Shown here in pieces: positions 39,711-54,178 of a DNA stretch of 64,000 bases. Under the pieces are notes generated by a model. The model saw only the letters and a list, made by a program, of their open reading frames with translations, was not told the origin of the DNA and did not search any database. The DNA lies in NCBI RefSeq assembly GCF_003018255.1, contig NZ_CP027440.1; one strand, 5' to 3'. Within the stretch, counting starts at the first letter, position 1, and the number at the start of each line of letters is the position of its first letter. Position numbers and translations under genes: made by a program. The stretch comes from Escherichia coli (GTDB taxonomy: Bacteria > Pseudomonadota > Gammaproteobacteria > Enterobacterales > Enterobacteriaceae).

Positions 39711-39736
39711 AAAAAAGGTGCCGTAGCACCTTTTTA
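39711..39736 (-). terminator. Rho-independent terminator after cyoE (end of the cyoABCDE operon)
   Basis: aaaaaggtgc-cgta-gcaccttttt: self-complementary hairpin flanked by A/T runs, so the bottom-strand RNA has the stem followed by UUUUU. Confidence 0.65.
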
Positions 39737-47779: not shown

Positions 47780-47808
47780 AAAACGGCCTGCGGGCCGTTT
47801 TGTTTTGT
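47780..47808 (+). terminator. Rho-independent terminator after bolA
   Basis: aacggcc-tgc-gggccgtt hairpin followed by TTGTTTTG. Confidence 0.65.
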
Positions 47809-50361: not shown

Positions 50362-51636
50362 ATGACAGATAAACGCAAAGATGGCTCAGGCAAATTGCTG
50401 TATTGCTCTTTTTGCGGCAAAAGCCAGCATGAAGTGCGCAAGCTGATTGCCGGTCCATCCGTGTATATCTGCGACGAATGTGTTGATTTATGTAACGACA
50501 TCATTCGCGAAGAGATTAAAGAAGTTGCACCGCATCGTGAACGCAGTGCGCTACCGACGCCGCATGAAATTCGCAACCACCTGGACGATTACGTTATCGG
50601 CCAGGAACAGGCGAAAAAAGTGCTGGCGGTCGCGGTATACAACCACTACAAACGTCTGCGCAACGGCGATACCAGCAATGGTGTCGAGTTGGGCAAAAGT
50701 AACATTCTGCTGATCGGTCCGACCGGTTCCGGTAAAACGCTGCTGGCTGAAACGCTGGCGCGCCTGCTGGACGTCCCGTTCACCATGGCCGACGCAACCA
50801 CGCTGACCGAAGCCGGTTATGTGGGCGAAGACGTTGAAAACATCATTCAGAAGCTGTTGCAGAAGTGCGATTACGACGTACAGAAAGCGCAGCGCGGGAT
50901 TGTCTACATCGATGAAATCGACAAGATTTCTCGTAAGTCAGACAACCCGTCCATTACCCGAGACGTTTCCGGTGAAGGCGTACAGCAGGCACTGTTGAAA
51001 CTGATCGAAGGTACGGTAGCTGCTGTTCCACCGCAAGGTGGGCGTAAACATCCGCAGCAGGAATTCTTGCAGGTTGATACCTCTAAGATCCTGTTTATTT
51101 GTGGCGGTGCGTTTGCCGGTCTGGATAAAGTGATTTCCCATCGTGTAGAAACCGGCTCCGGCATTGGTTTTGGCGCGACGGTAAAAGCGAAGTCCGACAA
51201 AGCAAGCGAAGGCGAGCTGCTGGCGCAGGTTGAACCGGAAGATCTGATCAAGTTTGGTCTTATCCCTGAGTTTATTGGTCGTCTGCCGGTTGTCGCAACG
51301 TTGAATGAACTGAGCGAAGAAGCTCTGATTCAGATCCTCAAAGAGCCGAAAAACGCCCTGACCAAGCAGTATCAGGCGCTGTTTAATCTGGAAGGCGTGG
51401 ATCTGGAATTCCGTGACGAGGCGCTGGATGCTATCGCTAAGAAAGCGATGGCGCGTAAAACCGGTGCCCGTGGCCTGCGTTCCATCGTAGAAGCCGCACT
51501 GCTCGATACCATGTACGATCTGCCGTCCATGGAAGACGTCGAAAAAGTGGTTATCGACGAATCGGTAATTGATGGTCAAAGCAAGCCGTTGCTGATTTAT
51601 GGCAAGCCGGAAGCGCAACAGGCATCTGGTGAATAA
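50362..51636 (+). CDS. clpX: Clp protease ATP-binding unfoldase ClpX (424 aa)
   Basis: N-terminal zinc finger [27 protein letters not shown]; Walker A GPTGSGKT; Walker B YIDEIDK. Confidence 0.97.
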
Positions 51637-51663
51637 TTAACCATTCCCATACAATTAGTTAAC

Positions 51664-51720
51664 CAAAAAGGGGGGATTTTATCTCCCCTTTAATTTTTCC
51701 TCTATTCTCGGCGTTGAATG
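51664..51720 (-). ncRNA. sraA: Candidate small RNA SraA (psrA3) in the clpX-lon intergenic region
   Basis: From memory, a small RNA is annotated between clpX and lon on the opposite strand in K-12; what the sequence shows is a bidirectional terminator at the expected 3' end. Coordinates are approximate. Confidence 0.35.
51666..51698. terminator. Bidirectional hairpin terminator in the clpX-lon spacer
   Basis: aaaagggggga-tttt-atctcccctttt: G-rich stem flanked by A-run upstream and T-run downstream, so it can terminate transcripts from either strand. Confidence 0.7.
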
Positions 51721-51740
51721 TGGGGGAAACATCCCCATAT
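51714..51740 (+). promoter_or_regulatory. sigma32 heat-shock promoter of lon
   Basis: -35 TTGAAT (51714-51719), 13-bp spacer, -10 CCCCATAT (51733-51740): near-perfect match to the sigma32 consensus, about 85 bp upstream of the lon ATG. Confidence 0.75.
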
Positions 51741-51823
51741 ACTGACGTACATGTTAATAGATGGCGTGAAGCACAGTCGTGTCATCTGATTACCTGGCGG
51801 AAATTAAACTAAGAGAGAGCTCT

Positions 51824-54178
51824 ATGAATCCTGAGCGTTCTGAACGCATTGAAATCCCCGTATTGCCGCTGCGCGATGTGGTGGTTTATCCGCACATGGT
51901 CATCCCCTTATTTGTCGGGCGGGAAAAATCTATCCGTTGTCTGGAAGCGGCGATGGACCATGATAAAAAAATTATGCTGGTCGCGCAGAAAGAAGCTTCA
52001 ACGGATGAGCCGGGTGTAAACGATCTTTTCACCGTCGGGACCGTGGCCTCTATATTGCAGATGCTGAAACTGCCTGACGGCACCGTCAAAGTGCTGGTCG
52101 AGGGGTTACAGCGCGCGCGTATTTCTGCGCTCTCTGACAATGGCGAACACTTTTCTGCGAAGGCGGAGTATCTGGAGTCGCCGACCATTGATGAGCGGGA
52201 ACAGGAAGTGCTGGTGCGTACTGCAATCAGCCAGTTCGAAGGCTACATCAAGCTGAACAAAAAAATCCCACCAGAAGTGCTGACGTCGCTGAATAGCATC
52301 GACGACCCGGCGCGTCTGGCGGATACCATTGCTGCACATATGCCGCTGAAACTGGCTGACAAACAGTCCGTTCTGGAGATGTCCGACGTTAACGAACGTC
52401 TGGAATATCTGATGGCAATGATGGAATCGGAAATCGATCTGCTGCAGGTTGAGAAACGCATTCGCAACCGCGTTAAAAAGCAGATGGAGAAATCCCAGCG
52501 TGAGTACTATCTGAACGAGCAAATGAAAGCTATTCAGAAAGAACTCGGTGAAATGGACGACGCGCCGGACGAAAACGAAGCCCTGAAGCGCAAAATTGAC
52601 GCGGCGAAAATGCCGAAAGAGGCAAAAGAGAAAGCGGAAGCAGAGTTGCAGAAGCTGAAAATGATGTCTCCGATGTCGGCAGAAGCGACCGTAGTGCGTG
52701 GTTATATCGACTGGATGGTACAGGTGCCGTGGAATGCGCGCAGCAAGGTCAAAAAAGACCTGCGTCAGGCGCAGGAAATCCTTGATACCGACCATTATGG
52801 TCTGGAGCGCGTGAAAGATCGCATCCTTGAGTATCTTGCGGTTCAAAGCCGTGTCAACAAAATCAAGGGACCGATCCTCTGCCTGGTAGGGCCGCCGGGG
52901 GTAGGTAAAACCTCTCTTGGTCAGTCCATTGCCAAAGCCACCGGGCGTAAATATGTCCGTATGGCGCTGGGCGGCGTGCGTGATGAAGCGGAAATCCGTG
53001 GTCACCGCCGTACTTACATCGGTTCTATGCCGGGTAAACTGATCCAGAAAATGGCGAAAGTGGGCGTGAAAAACCCGCTGTTCCTGCTCGATGAGATCGA
53101 CAAAATGTCTTCTGACATGCGTGGCGATCCGGCCTCCGCACTGCTTGAAGTGCTGGATCCAGAGCAGAACGTAGCGTTCAGCGACCACTACCTGGAAGTG
53201 GATTACGACCTTAGCGACGTGATGTTTGTCGCGACGTCGAACTCCATGAACATTCCGGCACCGCTGCTGGATCGTATGGAAGTGATTCGCCTCTCCGGTT
53301 ATACCGAAGATGAAAAACTGAACATCGCCAAACGTCACCTGCTGCCGAAGCAGATTGAACGTAATGCACTGAAAAAAGGTGAGCTGACCGTCGACGATAG
53401 CGCCATTATCGGCATTATTCGTTACTACACCCGTGAGGCGGGCGTGCGTGGTCTGGAGCGTGAAATCTCCAAACTGTGTCGCAAAGCGGTTAAGCAGTTA
53501 CTGCTCGATAAGTCATTAAAACATATCGAAATTAACGGCGATAACCTGCATGACTATCTCGGTGTTCAGCGCTTCGACTATGGTCGCGCGGATAACGAAA
53601 ACCGTGTCGGTCAGGTAACTGGTCTGGCGTGGACGGAAGTGGGCGGTGACTTGCTGACCATTGAAACCGCGTGCGTTCCGGGTAAAGGCAAACTGACCTA
53701 TACCGGATCGCTTGGCGAAGTGATGCAGGAGTCCATTCAGGCGGCGTTAACGGTGGTTCGTGCGCGTGCGGAAAAACTGGGGATCAACCCTGATTTTTAT
53801 GAAAAACGCGACATCCACGTCCACGTACCGGAAGGTGCGACGCCGAAAGATGGTCCGAGTGCCGGTATTGCTATGTGCACCGCGCTGGTTTCTTGCCTGA
53901 CCGGTAACCCGGTTCGTGCTGATGTGGCAATGACCGGTGAGATCACTCTGCGTGGTCAGGTACTGCCTATCGGTGGTTTGAAAGAAAAACTACTGGCAGC
54001 GCATCGCGGCGGGATCAAAACAGTGTTAATTCCGTTCGAAAATAAACGCGATCTGGAAGAGATTCCTGACAACGTAATTGCCGATCTGGATATTCATCCT
54101 GTGAAACGCATTGAGGAAGTTCTGACTCTGGCGCTGCAAAATGAACCGTCTGGCATGCAGGTTGTGACTGCAAAATAG
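51824..54178 (+). CDS. lon: ATP-dependent protease Lon (784 aa)
   Basis: Internal ATG at 51824: [44 protein letters not shown]...; Walker [10 protein letters not shown]; protease Ser in PKDGPSAG. Confidence 0.97.

Follow-up and report, generated by a model that had tools for sequence, protein, structure and literature searches.

The clpX-lon spacer of Escherichia coli: a top-strand terminator, a heat-shock promoter and the antisense RNA annotated as SraA

The spacer between clpX and lon in Escherichia coli carries, on the strand opposite to both genes, the annotation of a small RNA, SraA (psrA3/t15; G0-8861; RF02029), which raises the question of whether this annotation marks an RNA gene in its own right or reflects the elements that end one top-strand transcript and begin the next. 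The stretch of E. coli DNA analyzed here (the window) comprises 64,000 nucleotides, and its clpX-lon spacer extends from 51637 to 51823, between the clpX TAA and the lon ATG, which confirms the length of 187 bp given in an original prediction made from the sequence alone; the sequence features named there are likewise all present at the places assigned to them (Table 1). Positions in NC_000913.3 were obtained as window position + 407064. A 401-bp query round the spacer is 100% identical with many E. coli chromosomes and finds a match in 5424 of 5426 complete genomes, and a 184-bp spacer query has at least 99% identity in 5412 of the 5425 matching records. No feature is annotated in the spacer in the current RefSeq record of MG1655 (NC_000913.3 455000-461500), nor in any of the PGAP-annotated E. 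coli genomes sampled; EcoCyc and Rfam do list sraA. Every element named for the spacer is already known: the terminator of clpX, the heat-shock promoter of lon and SraA have all been in databases for decades. Our comparative set consists of 80 clpX-lon loci from Enterobacterales, Vibrionales, Aeromonadales and Alteromonadales, across which the synteny, a spacer of ~115 to 220 bp, the terminator hairpin and the sigma32 promoter recur almost without exception. The spacer is a compact junction of two top-strand transcription units that have already been characterized. As a minor observation from its first part (51637-51665), TTAACCA directly 3' of the clpX stop is kept in most Enterobacterales, with variants TTAGCCA, TTCACCA and TTAATCA, and it recurs as GTTAACC just 5' of the A-run.

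Table 1. Features in and beside the clpX-lon spacer, in window coordinates (strand "." where neither strand is assigned)
Feature	Position	Strand	Description
clpX stop codon TAA	51634..51636	+	ORF 50362..51636, 424 aa; named clpX in all E. coli matches
Rfam RF02029 (sraA), full-length match	51657..51752	-	106.7 bits, gathering score 56, E = 1.4e-18, model 1-95/95
SraA, older K-12 annotation, 57 nt	51664..51720	-	EcoCyc G0-8861; = NC_000913.3 458728-458784
A-run AAAAA 5' of stem	51665..51669	.	bottom-strand U-tract; just 5' of G-C core
clpPX intrinsic terminator stem-loop	51667..51691	+	AAAGGGGGGAT-TTT-ATCTCCCCTTT, 11 pairs, -15.5 kcal/mol; pairing and covariation in Enterobacterales
T-rich tail TTTAATTTTT	51689..51698	+	3' of G-C core; contains mapped clpPX 3' end 51694/51695
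lon sigma32 promoter TTGAAT-N13-CCCCATAT	51714..51740	+	-35 51714-19, 13-nt spacer, -10 51733-40
Inverted repeat GGGGGAAACATCCCC	51722..51736	.	within lon promoter; 5' hairpin of the Rfam model; IS186 insertion site
Weak candidate SraA promoter TTAACA-N18-GATGTT	51728..51757	-	-35 51757-52, -10 51733-28, start 51721/20; read by eye
Sigma70-like -10 TATACT	51738..51743	+	same TTGAAT, 18-nt spacing; overlaps sigma32 elements; promoter scan 9/12
lon transcription start	51748..51751	+	Cappable-seq, SMRT-Cappable-seq
Hairpin in lon 5' UTR	51759..51787	+	compensatory changes at 6/7 consensus pairs, 11 Enterobacteriaceae
lon leader/ribosome-binding block ACCTGGCGGA...AAACTAAGAGAGAGCTCT then ATG	51792..51826	+	near-invariant, alignment of 32 Enterobacterales
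lon ATG start codon	51824-51826	+

With respect to the top strand, the claim that the hairpin terminates clpX is borne out by two independent data sets. Term-seq (Adams et al. 2021) places a plus-strand 3' end at NC_000913.3 458758 (window 51694), found under two of the three growth conditions, given an intrinsic-terminator score of 6.2 and labelled "antisense sraA (G0-8861)," and full-length clpP-clpX transcripts in SMRT-Cappable-seq (Yan et al. 2018) stop at 458758/9, putting the published ends at 51694/51695, inside the U-tract that follows the G-C-rich stem-loop. In an alignment of 32 Enterobacterales, 88.8% of the cells of the terminator helix are paired, and compensatory change is seen in 10 of the 11 pairs. 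In a consensus terminator scan the hairpin comes out as terminator-like on either strand, and the 800-bp region round it holds six such sites against 0.8 expected from shuffles. The hairpin is thereby shown to be the intrinsic terminator of the clpP-clpX mRNA. The clpX 3' end is also flagged as lying within a Rho termination region (Adams et al. 2021).

Heat-shock promoters read by sigma32 (RpoH) follow a consensus close to CTTGAA-N13-15-CCCCATNT. The lon promoter resembles them, with a TTGAA -35, a CCCCATNT-type -10, a spacing within 13 to 15 nt and a position 5' of the gene for a heat-induced protease; transcription by sigma32 holoenzyme from this site is reported in the older literature. 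TTGAAT-N13-CCCCATAT matches only once in the 64 kb, against 0.02 matches expected by chance, a sigma32-type promoter stands 5' of lon in 67 of the 80 gammaproteobacterial loci, and lon is published as heat-induced and as part of the RpoH regulon, all of which upholds the near-consensus sigma32 promoter of the original prediction. For the start sites we examined the plus strand of the Cappable-seq data (Ettwiller et al. 2016), in which the dominant lon start lies at U00096.2 458039 (window 51751, score 189), and in SMRT-Cappable-seq the lon transcripts begin at 458812 (window 51748; Yan et al. 2018). These starts, from unstressed cells, lie 8 to 11 nt beyond CCCCATAT, and the range fits the overlapping sigma70-like TTGAAT-N18-TATACT as well as it does CCCCATAT, or better, as judged from the spacing of the motifs. 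TTGAAT-N13-CCCCATAT is the promoter of lon, with sigma32 as its likely sigma factor, and it overlaps a putative sigma70-like promoter with which it shares its -35 element.

Downstream of these starts, the covariation listed in Table 1 shows that the lon mRNA opens with a leader that is both structured and conserved. A consensus structure was obtained within the Enterobacteriaceae; a single one for all Enterobacterales failed, with the hairpins varying in sequence and position between families, and a search of Rfam found no family covering the leader hairpin region. In other Enterobacterales different hairpins occupy about the same place: Pantoea has ACTGCA/TGCAGT, and both Yersinia and Pectobacterium have GTGAAAC/GTTTCAC. 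In Yersinia, Photorhabdus, Rahnella, Brenneria and Pectobacterium (loci L022, L023, L026, L024, L027, L013, L015 and L017, at about locus positions 830-870) we observe two overlapping and mutually exclusive palindromes, GTGAAAC...GTTTCAC and CTCGTG...CACGAG, which could possibly form a structural switch. The block ACCTGGCGGA-N-AAACTAAGAGAGAGCTCT (51792-51823) is far more conserved than the remaining spacer, and the near-invariant ACCTGGCGGA...AAGAGAGAGCTCT lies 3' of the leader hairpin; in addition, CAUGU (51750-54) is able to pair with ACCUG (51792-96). A Rho-termination region peaks at plus-strand position 458831 (window 51767; Rho score 1.78, p = 8e-8; Adams et al. 2021), inside the lon 5' UTR, and may reflect premature termination in the leader.

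On the bottom strand, the position and orientation that the original prediction gave for SraA/psrA3 are correct: the spacer matches RF02029 over its full length, the match lies between clpX and lon and antisense to both, the EcoCyc label G0-8861 appears in published tables, and reviews place SraA (psrA/t15) between clpX and lon. In locus, strand and sequence the spacer is the type locus of SraA, and nothing differs. The descriptions of the RNA itself disagree, with the 57-nt form running from 51720 to 51664, just short of the -35 element, and the 96-nt Rfam form running from 51752 to 51657, antisense over the entire lon promoter and ending beside the lon start. The coordinates of the shorter form (51664-51720) are those that we take to be the older K-12 annotation. 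They fit the "antisense sraA" labels which Adams et al. 2021 attach to plus-strand positions 458758 and 458831.

The RF02029 model consists of two hairpins, the 3' one being the clpX terminator read backwards and the 5' one the spacer and -10 element of the lon promoter read backwards. Across 32 Enterobacterales the 5' hairpin, which is the inverted repeat of the promoter, is only 39.4% paired and shows no compensatory change, and the GGGGG partner in this repeat is essentially confined to Escherichia; we accordingly rejected it as a conserved RNA structure. Covariation thus lends the model no support as a bottom-strand RNA, with the G.U pairs of the terminator hairpin readable on the top strand only and the 5' hairpin unconserved. 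Among the Enterobacterales spacers searched, nearly all give a match to the model, with 28 of 35 exceeding its gathering score, and matches just below threshold occur in Photobacterium and Grimontia, as would be expected of a model that encodes no more than a terminator and a promoter. Since these top-strand elements explain both the Rfam match and the cross-species conservation, neither supports an independent RNA gene, and we rejected the match as evidence for one, the model being the reverse complement of terminator plus promoter. What is added here is that the top-strand terminator and promoter account for the conservation of the RF02029 family, and, as a caution, RF02029 will "find SraA" wherever lon follows clpX. 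Weak matches to other families (DapZ, L20 leader, OxyS and others) were rejected as terminator-driven and far below threshold.

A further claim was that the hairpin works as a terminator in both directions. Bidirectional intrinsic terminators, with a symmetric hairpin between an A-tract and a U-tract, were reportedly described genome-wide by SEnd-seq (Ju et al. 2019). The spacer hairpin resembles them in its G-C-rich stem, in its flanks of AAAAA (51665-69) on the 5' side and the T-run TTTAATTTTT (51689-98) on the 3' side, and in being called by the scan on both strands. It differs from them in that they typically lie between convergent genes and clpX and lon are codirectional, and in that its documented 3' end is on the top strand only and its bottom-strand form contains an A.C mismatch. 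In the curated Term-seq tables (Adams et al. 2021; three conditions, low sensitivity), the interval 458690-458749 has no entry on either strand and hence no bottom-strand 3' end. When these tables are calibrated on other small RNAs, SraB, ArcZ, GlmZ and CsrC have 3' ends on their own strand and SraG and RyjA do not; since the latter two are also absent, the absence of SraA is weak evidence only, of low abundance. The bidirectional claim thus stands for the top strand, where ends are mapped, and for the bottom strand it meets a table that lists no end, itself a weak argument.

The two strands can also be compared through G.U pairs, since each of these turns into an A.C mismatch when the opposite strand is read. 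The E. coli hairpin core, with G74.T84, has -11.1 kcal/mol on the top strand and -8.3 on the bottom, where this pair becomes the A.C mismatch; in E. albertii the pair is G-C. Across 78 spacers, 10 distinct hairpins have a G.U in the G-C core that is readable on the top strand and 0 have one readable on the bottom strand (binomial p = 0.002, the 10 hairpins representing only ~6-7, at least 6, independent lineages), and the mirror control gave the reverse pattern, as expected. The flanks differ as well: all 78 of the 78 loci have a T-run (5 or more T within 9 nt), 68 of the 78 have an A-run (5 or more A within the 9 nt upstream), and Yersinia, Providencia and Arsenophonus have lost the A-run and kept the T-run. 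Such symmetry is not the default, because a comparable A-run is present at only 3 of the window's 14 other top-strand terminator-like sites. The A-run may serve forward termination through an A:U extension of the stem, or reverse termination, and its presence in 68 of 78 loci against 3 of 14 other sites could reflect selection for the latter. Elsewhere in the window, at 39717-39730 and 47784-47797, there are short G-C hairpins with A-run and T-run flanks that the terminator search calls on both strands.

If SraA is a separate transcript, it should have a start. The promoter scan of the region calls no bottom-strand promoter. The candidate read by eye, TTAACA-N18-GATGTT, matches the consensus at 8 of 12 positions, below the scan criteria, and at only 3 of 6 in its -10 element; its predicted start coincides with the annotated 5' end of SraA (51721/20). 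With equally good motifs found in the window at a rate of 0.41 per kb per strand, its position is suggestive, although the agreement with the annotated end may be circular, if the annotation was itself derived from a promoter prediction. Across related loci no bottom-strand promoter is conserved in position, and the candidate motif is absent outside the Enterobacteriaceae. Within that family its hexamers lie in conserved blocks, which the lon promoter and the pairing in the lon leader explain equally well; the -10 hexamer falls in the sigma32 spacer apart from the first C of CCCC. Another candidate, ATGACA-N18-TCTATT (start near 51752), was rejected for a C at position 2 of the -10 and for its absence in Citrobacter, and also because the arm of the lon leader hairpin in which it lies covaries freely.

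Overlapping (back-to-back) divergent promoters and pervasive divergent transcription do occur in bacteria. The spacer would be comparable to such cases in that the candidate SraA start of the 57-nt form and the lon start lie 27 to 31 bp apart on opposite strands, with fully overlapping promoters whose elements are interdigitated, but differs in that the bottom-strand promoter is here a weak sequence candidate only. The two units had been described as divergent and tightly spaced, which holds for the 57-nt annotation, at 27 to 31 bp, and fails for the Rfam span, which runs antisense across the lon promoter.

The original screen of 2001 is said to have found SraA expressed, with northern-blot verification reportedly included. 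A 2025 RNA-seq study lists SraA among 91 annotated small RNAs and detects it in all conditions tested, without regulation, and a Salmonella Tn-seq analysis picked it out as a fitness candidate. At least one recent report of "SraA expression", in Yersinia ruckeri, is a count of the reads that fall on a 97-nt RF02029 annotation. Cells over-expressing SraA showed no change in biofilm, motility or fimbriae, and a mouse phenotype of the Salmonella deletion was not reproduced. The literature found assigns SraA no function, in agreement with the original prediction. The RNA, taken as 57 to 61 nt, is no more stably folded than shuffled sequence (z = -1.4), and its U-tail has only 5 U.

Weighing these results, we consider it probable that SraA is a low-abundance divergent transcript that is stopped by the clpX terminator acting in reverse, with its conservation a passenger of the top-strand elements. 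Such an RNA would start at 51721/20 from the weak sigma70-type TTAACA-N18-GATGTT inside the lon promoter and would be released where the terminator, read in reverse, forms a weakened hairpin, GGGGAGAUAAAAUCCCCCC, followed by UUUUU; the conservation of the SraA/Rfam family would then be owed to the terminator and promoter of the top strand and not to selection on the RNA. We favor the passenger status because the RF02029 model spans exactly terminator plus promoter, because 10 distinct hairpins have G.U pairs in the G-C core on the top strand and 0 have them on the bottom, because the Rfam 5' hairpin is 39% paired without compensatory change, because Yersinia, Providencia and Arsenophonus keep the T-run without the A-run, and because no bottom-strand promoter is conserved in position; the comparison of 78 gammaproteobacterial spacers gave no sign of selection on the SraA RNA itself. 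Low abundance is suggested by the lack of a bottom-strand 3' end in Term-seq under three conditions. Over-expression without effect, the Salmonella mutant phenotype that was not reproduced, and a candidate promoter that predicts the annotated 5' end also speak for this reading. Against this reading stand the reported detection in the 2001 screen and in RNA-seq in 2025, and the A-run in 68 of 78 loci, which could reflect selection for reverse termination; moreover, its own supports are limited, with the Term-seq absence weak, the G.U asymmetry resting on ~6-7 lineages, and the candidate promoter weak and maybe circular.

The same evidence bears on the view of the original prediction, that SraA is a genuine trans-acting regulatory RNA with its own promoter and terminator, which we find unlikely. 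It has on its side an annotation and an Rfam family, the reported detection by RNA-seq, the fitness score in Salmonella and the wide conservation of the A-run that gives the bottom strand its U-tract, but the hairpin shows selection for its top-strand form alone, the 5' hairpin is unconserved, no bottom-strand promoter keeps its position, the U-tail has only 5 U, and the folding does not exceed that of shuffled sequence (z = -1.4). Over-expression had no phenotype, the mouse phenotype was not confirmed, at least one report of expression is a mere read count over the Rfam interval, and effects of transposons or deletions at this site are inseparable from effects on the lon promoter. At the other extreme, there would be no discrete bottom-strand RNA at all and SraA would be an annotation artefact of a promoter-plus-terminator prediction; this we hold to be very improbable. 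The missing bottom-strand 3' end in Term-seq, the empty spacer in RefSeq MG1655 and in thousands of PGAP-annotated genomes, and an Rfam model that is the reverse complement of top-strand elements would all fit it, but the Term-seq tables miss SraG and RyjA too, and SraA is still counted and reported as detected among the 91 annotated small RNAs. The original report, moreover, reportedly included northern-blot verification.

It is also conceivable, though quite unlikely, that the bottom-strand promoter acts in cis and the RNA is irrelevant, with a bound sigma70 polymerase occluding the lon promoter in unstressed cells until sigma32 holoenzyme displaces it on heat shock. The placement of the candidate hexamers inside the lon promoter and initial transcribed region, the 27 to 31 bp between the starts, and the conservation within the Enterobacteriaceae of GAAACATC in the sigma32 spacer and of the block ACATGTTAA speak for it; however, the candidate promoter is weak, with a -10 that matches at 3 of 6 positions, short divergence times and the lon leader pairing explain the same conserved blocks, and the motif is absent outside the Enterobacteriaceae although the lon promoter is universal. 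With similar reserve we mention a fuller version, in which SraA would be no small-RNA gene of its own but the mark of a weak sigma70 promoter set back-to-back with the lon promoter and competing with it until sigma32 takes over, the A-run would stop the antisense run into clpX, and RF02029 would be the reverse complement of terminator plus promoter. Competition of this kind, if true, would form a small added layer in the control of a major protease.

The inverted repeat within the lon promoter, which supplies the 5' hairpin of the Rfam model, is also a target of IS186. We take it to be the known IS186 hot spot of the E. coli B lon::IS186 type. A split clpX-lon spacer is seen in ~55 of the 5424 complete E. 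coli genomes, and in NZ_CP137696.1 an IS421/IS186 element is inserted in the repeat at ...AACATCCC|CATAAGCGC. In the same genome (L082 2575-2620), the element is joined at ...AACATCCC|CATAAGCGCTAACTTAAGGG, with lon deleted through to entD. The same kind of insertion was described in phage-resistant MG1655 in a 2026 paper.
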